Origin: Patescibacteria group bacterium | GTDB lineage: Bacteria > Patescibacteriota > JABMPQ01 > JAHIRA01 | Reading direction: 5' to 3' | Assembly (NCBI GenBank): GCA_018818205.1 | Contig: JAHISJ010000024.1 | Location: 17,093 to 81,092, forward strand | DNA length: 64,000 nt | Part shown: in pieces, positions 2,336 to 16,853 of the stretch | How the letters are laid out: every line of letters starts with the position of its first letter | Position numbering within the stretch: the stretch's first letter is position 1 | Position numbers and translations under genes: made by a program | Notes under the pieces: generated by a model | The model's input: only the letters and a program-made list of their open reading frames with translations | Database searches by the model: none | Told to the model about the DNA's origin: nothing

Positions 2336-3466
2336 CTACAAATTCAAAAGCACCCACTTTTGAAACACTGGGTCTGTATAGTAATACCTGCGGTTCTCTT
2401 TATATAAAATCCTAAAGCCCAACAGTTCAGAAAGATAATGCTGCAGAGCTCCTTGCGACATGGAGAGCATGCGTGCAATTTCCATCTGTGTTAGTCCTTC
2501 TCTGGATGCCAAAAATCGAATCAGTAATTTGAGCGGACCATGATACCGTGCCTTAAGAAGCGTGACGTCGTACAGTGACTGTAGAAAAAGTGCAAGCGTT
2601 GTCTCACTCTTAAGCGCTCGCTCAAAGAGCTGATTCACCGTCTCGTCATCAAGCGTGCCTTTTCCTCTAAAGAGCCGCACAATGGATTTAAGATAAAACG
2701 GATGTCCTGATGAGAGCTCAACCAAAATCTTTTTCATGTCAGGACCAATGTGCTTCATGCGTGCAGTAAGAAATGCCTCTGATTCCTGATAGGTGAGTGG
2801 CCCCAGCTCATAGTACTCAGGATTCTGCAACGGGCACTGATCAACGTCAAGCATATCATCATAGGAGACTCCATACGAGGTTGAAAGGATTGAGGTGATA
2901 CTATTACTAAACAATGTCCGACACACATGCGTATGAGCCAAACTCATATTTCTAAAAAGTGAAAGAGAAAAGAGCTCAGAGACGTTGTCGATTATATATA
3001 ATGGCTTCATGCCAAGTTCTGTCGTAACCTTTGCCGGAATGCTGAGCATAACAAGAAGGGTATCAAGCCGTGACTGATCAGAAGAAGCATTAAAAAGATG
3101 AACAAACCGATCGTCTGCCATACACTCATCCAATGAAGCCGGAATAATAGAAAGTGCATCTGAACCAACATCTAAACTCCTAATGTGCGCCTGAATACTA
3201 TATAATCCTTCCTCAACAAATCGCTTTCCAAAATCCTCGGGCGTAGTGACGAGCCGCTTAAAATCGTACATAAGGGGTACTATCTCCGGATCTTTAATGA
3301 GATTGCGTGTTGCAAACTTAAGAAGCGTCGTCTTGCCAATTCTTGGTAGTCCAAAAAAAAGCAACGTTTGTACCTTGCCGTGCCGAGAAAGCTCAATGGC
3401 ATGCAAAATATCATTTAACTCTCGTTTTCTCCCTACAAATGCGGGCTTCTTTGTTTGTGTTGCCAT
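2336..3466 (-). CDS. P-loop ATPase of the ATPase_2 (PF01637-like) family with C-terminal DUF234-like winged-helix
   Basis: Walker A GLPRIGKTTLL. C-terminal LTQMEIARML...YYYTDPVFQKWVLLN resembles the DUF234 wHTH ending. Start placed at MATQTKKP (ORF-track start 3496 is 10 codons further upstream). Confidence 0.65.
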   Translation of the reverse strand: MATQTKKPAFVGRKRELNDILHAIELSRHGKVQTLLFFGLPRIGKTTLLKFATRNLIKDPEIVPLMYDFKRLVTTPEDFGKRFVEEGLYSIQAHIRSLDVGSDALSIIPASLDECMADDRFVHLFNASSDQSRLDTLLVMLSIPAKVTTELGMKPLYIIDNVSELFSLSLFRNMSLAHTHVCRTLFSNSITSILSTSYGVSYDDMLDVDQCPLQNPEYYELGPLTYQESEAFLTARMKHIGPDMKKILVELSSGHPFYLKSIVRLFRGKGTLDDETVNQLFERALKSETTLALFLQSLYDVTLLKARYHGPLKLLIRFLASREGLTQMEIARMLSMSQGALQHYLSELLGFRILYKENRRYYYTDPVFQKWVLLNL

Positions 3467-3477
3467 TTTTTTGATGT

Positions 3478-3507
3478 TTACACACGTTATACACACGTCT
3501 ACACAAA
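3478..3507. promoter_or_regulatory. Three tandem TACACA(CGT) direct repeats at the 5' end of the ATPase gene (possible operator)
   Basis: ttacacacgt / tatacacacgt / ctacacaaat occur consecutively immediately upstream of the proposed start at 3466. Confidence 0.3.
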
Positions 3508-3550
3508 TAATATCAATCTATCGTATTTTTGTAAAATGGAGATTTCTTAT

Positions 3551-13123: not shown

Positions 13124-13306
13124 AATTTTGTTGTAAAGTAACAACAAAATGATACCATTTTTTTAGCTTATTTGTCAATTTTTACGAGTAATTAACTTCT
13201 AAGAGAAGAAAATTTGTATGCGCCCATTAACATTTTGTACTATTTCTCATATTATAACGTACTGTAAGAAGCAAAAGTGAACATTATTAAACCGAAGGAG
13301 GATCTA

Positions 13307-13684
13307 ATGTTGTCTGAACAAAGCAAATTTGTTATGCGTACACTCAAGGAAAACTATATGACGCAATTAATTCCTGGGTTAGACACCAAGGAAAGAAGCA
13401 TGATTTTTATTATCATTCATGATTTTAGAGAAGAGAGGATTGTAGTTCTGTGGGATCACATAAGAGATGAAGAAAAAATTCCCAACCACCAAAGATTGTT
13501 TGATGCATTTTGTTCACTAAACGATAACACCGCAACAACGTGGGAAAAGTATATCAAAGGTGGCGGGGTAGCAATTAACGGGAAGGTCGTTTGTTGGAGT
13601 TCAGAGGTATTTGGAAGTGTAGGATCCGGACATCGGAACGTAATTGAAAGGGCACTTAGTGAACGTTTTGAAGGAATTGAGTAA
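13307..13684 (+). CDS. Hypothetical protein
   Basis: AAGGAGG SD 5 nt upstream of the ATG at 13307. The ORF-track start 13277 lies upstream of the SD. Confidence 0.45.
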   Translation: MLSEQSKFVMRTLKENYMTQLIPGLDTKERSMIFIIIHDFREERIVVLWDHIRDEEKIPNHQRLFDAFCSLNDNTATTWEKYIKGGGVAINGKVVCWSSEVFGSVGSGHRNVIERALSERFEGIE

Positions 13685-13839
13685 TGATCATTACTGCAAA
13701 TATAACAGTTAAGCAGCTTAACCTTCTTCTAGAAATGTCACAAAATGAGGCAAAGGAATTGGCAAACAAGGCAAACGTATCTTTCTTTCCAACCGGTCTC
13801 TCTGTTGTCAAGGACTATACCCATCAGGAGATGGCATAA
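13684..13839 (+). CDS. Small hypothetical protein (51 aa), start overlaps previous stop (TAATG)
   Basis: Translation MIITANITVKQLNLLLEMSQNEAKELANKANVSFFPTGLSVVKDYTHQEMA. Followed by a terminator. Confidence 0.25.
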   Translation: MIITANITVKQLNLLLEMSQNEAKELANKANVSFFPTGLSVVKDYTHQEMA

Positions 13840-13861
13840 TACACGCTCTCTAAAAATCAAG

Positions 13862-13891
13862 CCAGCAAATATTTAGTTTTGCTGGTTTTTT
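13862..13891 (+). terminator. Rho-independent terminator (likely bidirectional)
   Basis: Hairpin ccagcaaa-N8-tttgctgg followed by T6. An A8 run on the other side. Confidence 0.5.
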
Positions 13892-13970
13892 GCATAAAAA
13901 AAACACCCGGAGGGTGGGCTCAATCCCTTAACAAAGCGAGGAGGTGCTCGAGACTGAAATAATCATACAG

Positions 13971-14195
13971 AAATTGAAGGGGTCCCCAAGCAATTCCGAT
14001 TGATTGGGGAGAAGGAGGAACAATTCGTAACTGGAGTAGAATCCGTAGGCTTTGCGAAGTAATACACAGAAATAGGTTTCTGAAAGGGGTCCCCAAATAA
14101 TTCCTATTGTTTGGGGAGAAGGAGGAACAATATGGAAGCTGGAGTGGATCCCGAAGGCTTTGCGGAGGGATACACGTAAGCTGGAATATTGTTCC
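13971..14195. repeat. Tandem duplication of a ~110-bp element (2 copies, ~85% identity) abutting the tRNA 3' end
   Basis: Each copy has a conserved hairpin (tccccaa-loop-ttgggga, with compensatory changes), then gaaggaggaacaat, then ctggagt-gatcc-aggctttgcg-ag--atacac. Confidence 0.65.
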
Positions 14196-14199
14196 GACG

Positions 14200-14272
14200 T
14201 GGGCCCAGTAGGATTTGAACCTACGACAATCCGGTTATGAGCCGGGTGCTCTAACCACTGAGCTATGGGCCC
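14200..14272 (-). tRNA. tRNA with CAU anticodon (elongator Met or lysidine-type Ile2). C4-G69/C5-G68 acceptor pairs favour tRNA-Ile2.
   Basis: Minus-strand cloverleaf GGGCCCATAGCTCAGTGGTTAGAGCACCCGGCTCATAACCGGATTGTCGTAGGTTCAAATCCTACTGGGCCCA. G1-C72 means it is not an initiator. CCA is not encoded. Confidence 0.85.
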
Positions 14273-14334
14273 TAAGAAACACAAATCACTTACTCATTGT
14301 ATAAAAGCTCCCTTGAATGTCAATCTACTTCTGC

Positions 14335-14985
14335 TTAAGCAACCACCGGATGCATGATTATACACTCTACACCCTCAACATCTATAGCCGCTTTAAAGTT
14401 ATCCGCAGGACTATCAATACCTACATCATAACTCATGGGAATAACATATTTAGGCCGAACCATACGTACCGCATCAGCGGCATCTCTAAAATCCATTTCT
14501 CCCTCACCACCAATGGGCAAAAACGCAATATCAACATTTTCTCTATCTTGCATTCCGGGAATCAAATCGGTATCACCAGCAAAATAAAGTTTTTTCCCTG
14601 ACACTAACACCTCATAGCCAAACCCAAAATCACGAGGGAATGTTGAGCGTCCTTCACTATACGCAGGAATGGCACGGACAGATACGCCACTAAGCTCTCT
14701 AACTCCTCCTTCGGCCATTACGGTAACAAGCGAACCAACGGTATCTTCTGCACTTTGTGGACCAAAAACGGAAGTACCTTCTTTAGAAACAAGTTCAATT
14801 TGTTCTTTTGAGCAGGTCTTGTCACCTGCATGTGAAATAAGTATCACGTCTGCCTTGTCCTCATCAGAAACGGATACAATATTAAGTGGATCAAAATAGA
14901 TAACTGCATCAGGAGCTTTTACAAAGAAACTGGAATTACCAAAATAGGTGATTGTAAAATCGTCTATTGATATTGTCTCTGCCAT
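14335..14985 (-). CDS. MBL-fold metal-dependent hydrolase (UPF0173-like)
   Basis: LISHAGDKT ... FLPIGG motifs of the beta-lactamase fold. Paralogous to 49922..50563. Confidence 0.65.
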   Translation of the reverse strand: MAETISIDDFTITYFGNSSFFVKAPDAVIYFDPLNIVSVSDEDKADVILISHAGDKTCSKEQIELVSKEGTSVFGPQSAEDTVGSLVTVMAEGGVRELSGVSVRAIPAYSEGRSTFPRDFGFGYEVLVSGKKLYFAGDTDLIPGMQDRENVDIAFLPIGGEGEMDFRDAADAVRMVRPKYVIPMSYDVGIDSPADNFKAAIDVEGVECIIMHPVVA

Positions 14986-14994
14986 ACTGTTTTG

Positions 14995-16602
14995 TTATTG
15001 TTCTCTAAATATTTCTTCTTTTTTTTCTTTAATAAACCCTAGCCACTCTTCAAAAATTTCTACCAGCCCCTTAAATGGCGCTTCGATGATAACATCAAGG
15101 ATAAATACAAATACGTTCACTCGTGAGAAGTTAAGCGACATCCATCTTCCCGCTCGTATAATCGGTAATGCAAGTAGATCGAGTCCAAGGGTAAAAATGT
15201 TTTCTTTATTATCAAGCACCAAAAGTTCCTTTGCACTATGTCTAATCTTAAACCCGAAAAAGCTGACAAGACACAAGAAAAGTAAGAAAAGGAAAATACT
15301 GACAGCATTAAACCCAATTCTGGAAAGCGCAAACACGACAATGCCAAACGAAATCACAAAGAGTGTTGCGTACAGAATATTAAAGACAAGCCCCGCAATA
15401 CCCCGTTTTGTAACCGCTTTCTTAATTTCATACGCACCACCTTCTTCTTCATATCCATACACAACTTCCTTGAGGCCGTGAATAATTTTCTCAGTATTCT
15501 TCTCATCTGGTTTTTTGACGGTCAAAACTAAAACGGCAAGAAAGATTGGGTGAAACAAAACATTTACGATAAGCGGCAACCACTGCAATTCACCAAGAAA
15601 ATATATATCGTACGGAACTTCCAATATAAGTGCTAGCAGCATTTTGGTAAGGAAAATATACAAAATACTTCGTATAATGGCTCGCTTAAGTTTGGCATCC
15701 TGCTCTTTGTATTGCTTTAAACACGCCTGTTCAACCGCATTATCAAGCTCTTCCGGCTCAGAAAGCATTGCCTCAGCCTTGTCTGGGTTTGCTTCAATAA
15801 CGTCCTGCAAAATAATAAATAGCGGCGTGTATTTTCTTACTCGAACCATAAAATAGCGATTCAAAGGATGTCCCACAAGACGATCCACCTGCTCCTTAAC
15901 GGAGAGAAGCTCGTTTCTAATCTTTCTTGGATTAGCAAAATCAAGACTTGTCCAGTGAGGAAAGTAGAGTTTGAGCAAACTGTACTCAATCATCGGTTTA
16001 TCTGCTTTGAGCAATGTACGTCTAATCGCAATGTACACCAAAATGTTCTTTTCTTCTTTTTTGAGGGACTTGTCTTTGGAGATAAAGTTATCACTAATTG
16101 AGCGATACATACACTCAACAAGCGCTTCTTGAACTGGTGCCGGGGTCAGTGTTTCCTCGAGTTCACACGCTGCAATATCAATAAACCACTTTACCAGTTT
16201 CTTTTTTTCTTTGGCTTCCTCATTTGACGCAACAGAATTGATGAGGCGGATATACTTATCAAGCACGCGCCCTACATCAATTGTTAAGTCCTCAGGAATG
16301 GTATCGTTTTTTAAATACCCCCCTCGAATAAGCTCCTGAATAAGCGGCAAAGCTACCGTCTTTCCGTTTGCACCACCAACCAAACGCCTTCTAAGCGCCC
16401 GTCTGATTGCATCCGTTCTAAGTAAATGTTCTTCTTTTAAGTCAACTACCGTGCGAATTTTTTCATACAAAAAGGCAACCTTTGACGCGACCTCGCTTAC
16501 AGAAATCTTTGGAACATCGGCCGGATACAGGCCTTTCTCAGACTTCTTAAGCGTCACATCAACGATTCTTCTAACACAAGCTGTTGGTTCATAGAAGCTC
16601 AT
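14995..16602 (-). CDS. Integral membrane protein with large N-terminal soluble domain, hypothetical
   Basis: 535 aa. Multiple C-terminal TM helices. No recognised motif. Confidence 0.55.
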   Translation of the reverse strand: MSFYEPTACVRRIVDVTLKKSEKGLYPADVPKISVSEVASKVAFLYEKIRTVVDLKEEHLLRTDAIRRALRRRLVGGANGKTVALPLIQELIRGGYLKNDTIPEDLTIDVGRVLDKYIRLINSVASNEEAKEKKKLVKWFIDIAACELEETLTPAPVQEALVECMYRSISDNFISKDKSLKKEEKNILVYIAIRRTLLKADKPMIEYSLLKLYFPHWTSLDFANPRKIRNELLSVKEQVDRLVGHPLNRYFMVRVRKYTPLFIILQDVIEANPDKAEAMLSEPEELDNAVEQACLKQYKEQDAKLKRAIIRSILYIFLTKMLLALILEVPYDIYFLGELQWLPLIVNVLFHPIFLAVLVLTVKKPDEKNTEKIIHGLKEVVYGYEEEGGAYEIKKAVTKRGIAGLVFNILYATLFVISFGIVVFALSRIGFNAVSIFLFLLFLCLVSFFGFKIRHSAKELLVLDNKENIFTLGLDLLALPIIRAGRWMSLNFSRVNVFVFILDVIIEAPFKGLVEIFEEWLGFIKEKKEEIFREQ

Positions 16603-16778: not shown

Positions 16779-16853
16779 GGGGCCATCGTCTAGTGGTTAG
16801 GACACCAGGTTTTCATCCTGGTAACAGGGGTTCGATTCCCCTTGGCCCTACCA
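16779..16853 (+). tRNA. tRNA-Glu (UUC), CCA encoded
   Basis: GGGGCCATCGTCTAGTGGTTAGGACACCAGGTTTTCATCCTGGTAACAGGGGTTCGATTCCCCTTGGCCCTACCA. Anticodon loop TTTTCAT with TTC at positions 34-36. Confidence 0.9.

Follow-up and report, generated by a model that had tools for sequence, protein, structure and literature searches.

A structured element outside Rfam 15 at tRNA gene ends in Patescibacteria and Oscillospiraceae: a candidate new RNA family

What are the two direct repeats that lie against the end of a methionine tRNA gene in a Patescibacteria contig, and what might they do there? They are found in an intergenic region (13840-14335) of a 64,000-nucleotide stretch of contig JAHISJ010000024.1 from a Patescibacteria group bacterium, hereafter the window, whose first letter is position 1. 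An earlier note had described them as a tandem duplication carrying a hairpin under selection, and had proposed that they are att-site remnants of a mobile element, a duplicated small RNA (sRNA) or a cis-regulatory leader. As far as sequence can tell, the second proposal is supported in the form of a conserved structured element: the repeats are one complete and one 3′-truncated copy of a structured RNA element of about 110 nt, belonging to a family outside Rfam 15. Its parts in the window, and the adjacent tRNA, are the following, where R1 denotes a covariance model trained on nine complete copies.

14084-14198, plus strand: copy 2, the complete element (inverted repeats, RNAfold, model R1, family covariation)
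14090-14101 / 14106-14117, plus strand: P1 hairpin of copy 2, loop TCCT (inverted repeat)
14118-14121, plus strand: junction GAAG of copy 2
G14121-C14198, plus strand: closing pair of copy 2
14122-14123 with 14196-14197, plus strand: tandem G·A / A·G of copy 2
14124-14133 with 14186-14195, plus strand: P2 of copy 2, GGAACAATAT pairing with ATATTGTTCC (inverted repeat, folding)
14137-14140 / 14179-14182, plus strand: inner helix AGCT of copy 2, with purine-rich loops on its flanks
14144-14152 / 14167-14175, plus strand: P3 of copy 2
14193-14198, plus strand: 3′ end CCGACG of copy 2, directly against the tRNA discriminator base
13977-14067, plus strand: copy 1, 3′-truncated (repeat finder, alignment, model R1)
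13983-13994 / 13999-14010, plus strand: P1 of copy 1, with one G·A mismatch
14200-14272, minus strand: tRNA-Met, anticodon CAT, no encoded CCA (ARAGORN; Rfam tRNA model, 74.1 bits)

A repeat finder calls two pairs of direct repeats, 13977-14024 / 14084-14131 (92% identity over 48 nt) and 14031-14067 / 14139-14175 (81% over 37 nt), the copies being offset by 107-108 nt. In a global alignment of 13971-14069 with 14078-14177, 78 of 100 positions are identical with 1 gap, and identity reaches about 84% in the 13977-14067 core, in agreement with the 85% or so given before. A 46-nt degenerate pattern derived from both copies occurs at only 2 places in the window, where shuffles lead to an expectation of 0; Tandem Repeats Finder did not report the repeat. 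Each copy contains a hairpin followed by GGAGG, and copy 2 contains an open reading frame (ORF) of 15 codons, MEAGVDPEGFAEGYT, all as previously described. The repeat had been delimited at about 110 bp; there are indeed two copies, but copy 2 is longer and continues to 14198, closing strand included. Copy 1 retains the same GGGGAGAAGGAGGAAC junction, the 5′ strand of P2 and part of P3, and is devoid of the P2 3′ strand and of the CCGACG end; since the closing 3′ strand is missing, we consider it a truncated copy. R1 scores copy 2 at 94.7 bits (E 1e-21) and copy 1 at 33.9 bits over 13977-14060. The proximity to the 3′ end of a CAU tRNA gene is real, but this tRNA is encoded on the minus strand, so that the repeats sit past its 3′ end and, when read on the plus strand, are antisense to it. 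Five GGAGG motifs on the plus strand within 13909-14168 (260 nt) form the densest GGAGG/CCTCC cluster of the window; two of the five stand outside the repeats, in a hairpin loop (13937-13950) and in a minus-strand terminator stem (13904-13916).

Every complete copy of the family shares one fold on the purine-rich strand: the 12-bp hairpin P1, a junction, and a rod composed of P2, the inner helix and P3. The junction reads AGAAGGAGGAA in the window and in most Oscillospiraceae copies, and (A)GGAA in copies that precede tRNA genes as leaders. The 4-bp inner helix is AGCU/AGCU in Patescibacteria and GAUG/CAUC in Oscillospiraceae, and P3 is variable. At the base of P2 an invariant G-C closing pair is followed by GA opposite GA, which could form two sheared G·A pairs; this closure is retained even in leader copies without GGAGG.

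We aligned nine complete copies, some of which are related to each other. RNAalifold recovers from this alignment both P1 and P2 as well as the G-C closing pair, with double-sided changes in 15 of the 24 pairs. Paired cells amount to 89.4%, compared with 72.2% in shuffles, the covariation score is equalled by 0 of 500 shuffles, and pairing falls to 44-58% when the partner strand is slid. P2 alone appears among the copies as GGAACAAUAU, GGAAGUUUUCCGA, GGAGGAACCCGGA, GGAACGGCUCUGA, AUAUUAAUC and AAACGUAC, with a matching partner strand in each. Compensatory changes thus go beyond both shuffled and slid controls, as is generally asked of a conserved structured RNA. This is not the argument originally made for selection on structure, which relied on supposedly compensatory substitutions between the hairpins of the two window copies. 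Those substitutions are not compensatory: stem position 7 is A-T in copy 2 and a G·A mismatch in copy 1, and stem position 8 is C-G in copy 1 and a T·G wobble in copy 2. Selection on structure holds at the level of the family, its covariation being seen only across genomes.

The family was traced outside the window in several ways. A scan of GTDB, one genome per species, with the pattern GGTCCCCAA-N12-20-TTGGGGAGAAGGAGG found the element in at least four Oscillospiraceae metagenome-assembled genomes from rabbit gut, at one locus each. It lies between tRNA-Gly(CCC) and tRNA-Pro(CGG) at locus L005, the same spacer holds three tandem copies at L006, and at L003 and L004 the element is between protein-coding genes. 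The same kind of scan of metagenomes gave one true match (L011) among the matches listed, together with five chance matches within one coding gene; the start of the L011 contig (1-30) carries a miniature of the 5′ part of the element (GGGGTCCCCATCTATGGGGGAGGTGG), some 100 nt ahead of the complete copy. Further loci of the L005/L006 type were located through the radical-SAM gene that adjoins the element. At one of them, L023, the tRNA-Gly/tRNA-Pro spacer contains 1.5 copies, and in others the element is absent, the two tRNA genes being 9-10 nt (L027, L028) or 5 nt (L026) apart, compared with 150-350 nt when it is present (L005, L006, L023). A truncated upstream copy, as copy 1 in the window, is also found in L006, L023 and L004, and the arrays show a tendency for only the tRNA-proximal copy to be complete.

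Syntenic Patescibacteria contigs were found through homologues of the MBL-fold and 535-aa proteins encoded next to the window tRNA-Met. As the earlier note had suggested looking for, the element is present at tRNA loci of these relatives: in L013 and L017 a clearly homologous element immediately precedes tRNA-Met and reads in the same direction, with element/tRNA junctions ...GACGTG|GGGCC and ...GACGC|GGGCC, respectively. The tRNA-Met loci of L014, L015/L016 and L021 have no element. R1 recovers all its training copies at 48-110 bits, and also detects untrained copies directly upstream of tRNA-Glu in L017 (52.5 bits, E 3e-11), L013 (38.1) and L022 (24.1). Over the 64-kb window it gives no match beyond copies 1 and 2. 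Four relaxed-pattern scans of viral contigs yielded chance matches only, R1 finds nothing in those contigs, and blastn against phage and plasmid records returned no match. The family is thus present in Patescibacteria and Oscillospiraceae, with covarying helices and a position at tRNA or gene ends, and is present or absent at orthologous loci (tRNA-Gly/tRNA-Pro; the tRNA-Met and tRNA-Glu loci of Patescibacteria). The sample of loci is small, corresponding to about seven independent insertions.

The geometry at tRNA genes is peculiar. The gap between element end and tRNA end is 0-3 nt, and in all tRNA-linked cases it is the CCGACG end that faces the tRNA, either at its 5′ end in sense or at its 3′ end in antisense. 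Such an orientation rule is what would be expected from a mirror-symmetric target, namely the acceptor-stem repeat, with only about four independent events behind it. tRNA-primed reverse transcription, considered for L005 and L003 where tRNA-CCA is joined to the reverse complement of the element, was dropped as it leaves the leader-type copies unexplained. Some related loci carry other structures. In L021 two hairpins of about 130 nt, similar to each other (3190-3318 and 3391-3530), flank tRNA-Met on both sides; they do not resemble the element and have no R1 match. In L019 (5270-5486) and L020 (4060-4274) tRNA-Met is inverted relative to the MBL gene and preceded by a long hairpin with CACTTCAG...CTTCAGTG, which is similar to the element's inner motif read from the opposite strand, again with no R1 match. 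Directly after the element in L003 (2674-2684, minus strand) stands TGGTGACCCG, the reverse complement of ...CGGGTCACCA, which resembles a tRNA 3′ end with CCA; ARAGORN finds no tRNA at these positions.

No known RNA family accounts for the element. Rfam 15 (4227 models), searched at gathering thresholds, identifies in the window the tRNA only, and scans at E<=10 of window 13800-14330, L006 3863-4214 and L023 967-1162 give only tRNA or noise. The Rfam covariance search that had been recommended for the repeats accordingly matched no family; the element is absent from Rfam 15 and is probably a new tRNA-linked RNA family. A number of motifs were dismissed by eye, as their defining positions do not fit and Rfam is silent: hammerhead (CUGANGA...GAAA), kink-turn or box C-D, T-box stem I, integron attC, 5S, SRP RNA, the template/variable repeat pair of diversity-generating retroelements, and type III toxin-antitoxin repeats.

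Which strand of the element works? The strand carrying GGAGG folds better than its reverse complement in 12 of 12 complete copies, with -50.8 kcal/mol on the plus strand and -38.1 on the reverse complement for window copy 2 (RNAfold). The five leader copies contain 15 G·U pairs on this strand; minimum free energy folds of the other copies have one G·U each, or four in L011, which makes about four independent cases in the family helices. There is a single C·A mismatch on the GGAGG strand, and the remaining 1x1 mismatches are purine·purine. Besides, the inner motif of copy 2, TGGAAGCTGGAGT...AAGCTGG, is nearly identical to that of the tRNA-Glu leader copy of L017 while P2 and P3 have diverged, and this likeness of the inner loops argues for one shared function on one strand. 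In L013, L017 and L022 it is the purine-rich strand that is cotranscribed with the tRNA, given the good predicted sigma-70-type promoters upstream; before element and tRNA these read TTGACA/TTGACG-16/17-TAGAAT/TACTAT in L013 and L017. Folding and homologues together lead us to lean, by a small margin of confidence, towards the plus strand as the working strand.

The transcription signals around the window copies, which are consensus matches or readings by eye, are less simple:

14296-14323, minus strand: sigma-70-like promoter TTGACA-16-TACAAT (11/12 matches), upstream of tRNA-Met (consensus scan)
13904-13916, minus strand: terminator-like hairpin CACCCTCCGGGTG with a T8 run after it, the nearest such site past the tRNA (consensus scan)
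13955-13963, plus strand: candidate extended -10, TGaAATAAT, about 7 nt before 13970 (by eye; weak in an AT-rich genome)
13859-13888, plus strand: hairpin with TTTTTTG after it, probably terminating the upstream plus-strand ORFs (inverted repeat, T-run by eye)
13937-13950, plus strand: small hairpin CGAG-GAGGTG-CTCG with an extra GGAGG, read as CCTCC from the other strand, in the interval from the minus-strand terminator to copy 1

The reading that we prefer, with a probability of about 0.5 on the sequence evidence, is that of an undescribed structured RNA produced in or beside tRNA transcription units, its ends set by tRNA processing and its purine-rich plus-strand core being the working part. 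According to this reading, the element RNA would be made within, or next to, a tRNA transcript, and one of its ends would be defined by the enzymes that trim tRNAs, RNase P in the case of a 5′ leader as in the relatives. The folded plus-strand RNA would be the working molecule, acting via its conserved purine-rich loops and Shine-Dalgarno-like junction, to which a protein, the 30S subunit or C/U-rich RNAs may bind; binding of the GGA/AG-rich junction by CsrA or Hfq is one idea. The proposal of a cis-regulatory leader is in part recovered here, homologues being leaders of tRNA-Met and tRNA-Glu in relatives, but no mRNA is involved and in the window nothing lies downstream of the element on its own strand. 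A plus-strand RNA would there need a promoter of its own, for which TGaAATAAT (13955-13963) is the candidate, convergent with the tRNA.

Several observations weigh against the preferred reading. In the window, L005, L006 and L023 the promoter scan picked up no plus-strand promoter ahead of the element, and the weak extended -10 at 13955-13963 is the sole plus-strand candidate in the window. Read-through from upstream into the repeats is unlikely, given the likely plus-strand terminator at 13859-13888, although the terminator scan called this stem (13885-13862) as a minus-strand site only and its plus-strand assignment comes from the T-run. Outside the leader copies G·U support is thin, about four independent cases against one, and the energy gap between strands partly comes from the bonus that the energy model grants to purine-rich loops. 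The number of independent insertions sampled, about seven, must also be kept in mind. In L004 and L011, finally, the reverse complement of the element starts 0-3 nt past a stop codon, and the predicted transcription signals in the window and in Oscillospiraceae point the other way, as detailed now.

The best surviving alternative, which we hold possible and less likely, is that the working molecule is a trailer RNA from the minus strand. Transcription would go from the promoter at 14323-14296 through the tRNA and the reverse complements of both copies to the terminator at 13916-13904, and the trailer would be released by RNase Z. Its C/U-rich stretches, which resemble the 3′ end of 16S rRNA (GUUCCUCCUUCUCCCC twice, UCCCUCC and CACCUCC), would pair with Shine-Dalgarno regions of mRNAs, as do the C-rich Firmicute sRNAs RoxS/RsaE, LhrC and CsfG. 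The predicted signals are those that such a trailer calls for, and they count against the preferred reading. As the terminator at 13904-13916 is the first after the tRNA, the predicted unit in the window comprises the tRNA and the reverse complement of both copies, bracketed by promoter and terminator. L005, L006 and L023 are alike, with TTGCAA-17-TGnTATAAT before tRNA-Gly and a terminator past tRNA-Pro, and in L003 a U-tract terminator comes 12 nt past the reverse complement. The exact 16S-tail-like CCUCCUUCUCCCC is moreover confined to loci of the reverse-complement arrangement (L023 has a near variant). A junction string of 17-18 nt is identical in the window and most Oscillospiraceae copies, in this arrangement only, and the five CCTCC on the minus strand within 260 nt are the densest cluster of the window.

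The fold itself speaks differently. On the minus strand no complete copy has any G·U pair, several A·C mismatches would arise, folding is poorer in all 12 copies, and the conserved GA/GA closure turns into UC/CU. In five homologues, those with the 15 G·U pairs, the element is a tRNA leader whose transcription has the opposite sense, and the inner loops of copy 2 match a leader-type copy.

There is a precedent for a change of strand. The ylbH motif was first placed on the purine-rich strand, and northern blots then showed only the reverse strand, the sRNA CsfG (PMC3574147). CsfG, a sporulation sRNA of Bacillaceae, bears CU-rich stretches that are conserved (PMC3574147); it is transcribed from a sigma-F/G promoter of its own and is restricted to endospore formers (PMC9147052, PMC8583004). 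The element resembles ylbH/CsfG in layout, with a hairpin, a purine-rich AGAGGAG(A)AA junction, a second, bulged hairpin and, in the window and L003, a terminator-like site nearby, and likewise in its history of strand confusion; the L023 junction AAGAGGAGAAAG matches the ylbH consensus AGAGGAGAAA, and the other strand of the element has CU-rich stretches between helices, as CsfG does. In L003 the element with its adjacent terminator hairpin gives a full-length match to RF00516, the ylbH leader, but the 32.9 bits scored (E 1.7e-5, searching 301 nt) stay under the gathering threshold of 50. This score is helped by the generic terminator hairpin, and at E<=10 the ylbH model matches neither the window nor L006 nor L023, a silence that also detracts from the minus-strand trailer. 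Since the sub-threshold match is not reproduced at loci without an adjacent terminator, we do not claim membership of RF00516. Terminator-like sites follow the reverse complement after about 55 nt in the window and 12 nt in L003, and L005, L006 and L023 have a tRNA there. Neither the outer P2 helix, GA/GA closure included, nor the CCGACG end exists in ylbH. CsfG is served by a forespore promoter of its own; the element abuts tRNA ends, with no room for a promoter, and occurs in Patescibacteria. To our knowledge, Patescibacteria are not endospore formers. Among described RNAs, CsfG is in our view the nearest relative or analogue of the element, and not its family.

Two other types of sRNA invite comparison. 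3′ETS-leuZ, the 3′ external transcribed spacer of the E. coli glyW-cysT-leuZ transcript, acts as an sRNA sponge; it is short, poorly structured and confined to enterobacteria. Like it, the element forms part of a tRNA transcription unit, here a predicted one, and directly adjoins a tRNA end; predicted promoter and terminator bracket tRNA and element in the window, L005, L006 and L023, and by analogy the element could be a by-product of tRNA processing able to act in trans. Unlike it, the element is about 110 nt long and covarying, extends over two phyla, may be leader, spacer or trailer, and forms tandem arrays. RoxS/RsaE and the Listeria LhrC1-4 are C-rich Firmicute sRNAs with anti-Shine-Dalgarno-like motifs, some of them in tandem arrays. 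If the minus strand works, the element would resemble them in size (about 100 nt), in several C/U-rich single-stranded motifs that could pair with ribosome-binding sites and in its sometimes head-to-tail copies. However, it has no sequence or covariance-model similarity to them (Rfam holds RsaE, with no match), they possess their own promoters and terminators, and the fold of the element is better supported on the opposite strand.

Could the element be selfish or neutral DNA instead of a functional RNA? A palindromic element of the REP/BIME, ERIC or IS200/IS605-derived PATE type could insert, in one mirror orientation or the other, where tRNA genes end in inverted repeats, be tolerated since tRNA processing removes it from the transcript, and give rise to partial tandem copies by replication slippage. 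We regard this as improbable. ERIC/IRU, REP/BIME, Correia and PATE are indeed hairpin-forming intergenic elements of about 100 nt, variable between relatives, and the present element is similarly variably present and, by prediction, cotranscribed with neighbouring genes in either orientation. Its presence or absence at orthologous tRNA loci, its different loci in different genera, the CCGACG end turned to the tRNA in every tRNA-linked case and the recurrence of truncated tandem copies across several lineages all agree with insertion, and a strand-specific fold with G·T wobbles is compatible with a single-stranded DNA intermediate too. Contrary to these families, however, its copy number is very low: one locus per genome among the GTDB scan matches listed, 1-2 loci in Patescibacteria contigs and one in the 64-kb window. 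It has no terminal inverted repeats, no target-site duplications at the compared filled and empty sites, and no transposase within +/-10 kb. Copies within one genome are old and diverged rather than near-identical, the element was not found in the searched viral contigs, phage records and plasmid records, and the orientation rule comes from only about four independent events. Compensatory changes across phyla and conserved loops point to selection on the fold.

The att-site proposal, suggested by the position at the tRNA 3′ end, is effectively refuted: the 28-mer and 16-mer of the tRNA 3′ end are single in the 64-kb window even with 2-3 mismatches, Pfam annotation of the genes within +/-10 kb shows no integrase, transposase or reverse transcriptase, and with neither a second tRNA end nor an integrase the element is not an att remnant; in addition, no tRNA sequence lies inside the repeats, and the element is kept, with covarying helices, in settings unrelated to this one, some of them ahead of tRNA genes. 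Equally implausible is copy 2 as leader and ribosome-binding site of a 15-codon gene, for which GGAGG 6 nt ahead of the ATG was the argument: in the equivalent region of copy 1 each of the three frames is interrupted by stop codons and none offers a start, homologues lack the ATG or have it at another distance or in another frame, frames being shifted by indels, and the ATG and most of the ORF fall inside the conserved P2, inner helix and P3. As this ORF is not conserved, with neither frame nor start kept in copy 1 or in homologues, the element is not a gene of this kind.

Beyond the tRNA gene, the window carries on the minus strand an MBL-fold hydrolase gene (14335-14985) and the gene of a 535-aa protein (14995-16602). 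The MBL-fold protein has an identical sequence on ENA metagenome contig ERZ27247128 (106.8 kb), and NCBI labels both proteins 'Patescibacteria group bacterium'. The 535-aa protein has more than 600 homologues, those with a source name being from Patescibacteria or Parcubacteria, and no Pfam or NCBIfam family; the MBL-fold gene comes directly after the 535-aa gene in 9 of 9 related contigs with DNA beyond its end. On the other side of the repeats are two plus-strand ORFs, 13277-13684 (135 aa) and 13684-13839 (51 aa), overlapping by TAATG. Neither has a Pfam or NCBIfam family, and PADLOC gives for the 51-aa ORF a borderline DpdC match only (E 0.0098, 14.4 bits). The pair ends at a good plus-strand terminator shortly before the repeats.

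A 118-aa ORF on the minus strand (13928-14284), with no family, crosses the tRNA gene and both repeat copies and is almost certainly spurious; in L013 (106 aa) and L014 (87 aa) comparable ORFs are annotated as genes, though located beside the element and not across it. The antisense of tRNA-Met (14199-14272, plus strand) scores 62.3 bits against the Rfam Plastid-ycf2 5′UTR RNA (threshold 65.7), probably an artefact if that plastid motif is mostly the antisense of a CAU tRNA gene. The window also contains a tRNA-Glu(TTC) gene (16779-16853, plus strand), with no element upstream, unlike those of L013, L017 and L022.

What we describe exceeds a local duplication: it is a candidate new RNA family over two phyla, with an unusual geometry at tRNA ends. 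If real, it is a conserved folded RNA of Patescibacteria and Clostridia, which have little else in common, that has been missed by RNA-family catalogues. The case also holds a warning for annotation, as illustrated by the spurious 118-aa ORF and by ylbH/CsfG, where the strand of a motif was misassigned. The conflict between the strand that folds and the strand predicted to be transcribed, together with the mirror-image placement at tRNA ends, constitutes a concrete puzzle. A bolder proposal, which for the moment we find rather unlikely, is that of an ancient RNA common to both groups, with a terminus defined by a tRNA or by a mirror-image antisense fold, whose near-invariant 17-nt GGGGAGAAGGAGGAA junction (or its 16S-tail-like complement) would serve as a decoy for the 30S anti-Shine-Dalgarno or for ribosome-binding sites, the mirror-image placement then being a new way of moving or making such RNAs. 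More generally, the near-invariant core, Shine-Dalgarno-like or anti-Shine-Dalgarno-like, suggests a link with translation control, and the tie to tRNA genes as leader, spacer or trailer could show how small RNAs are produced from tRNA processing in reduced genomes.

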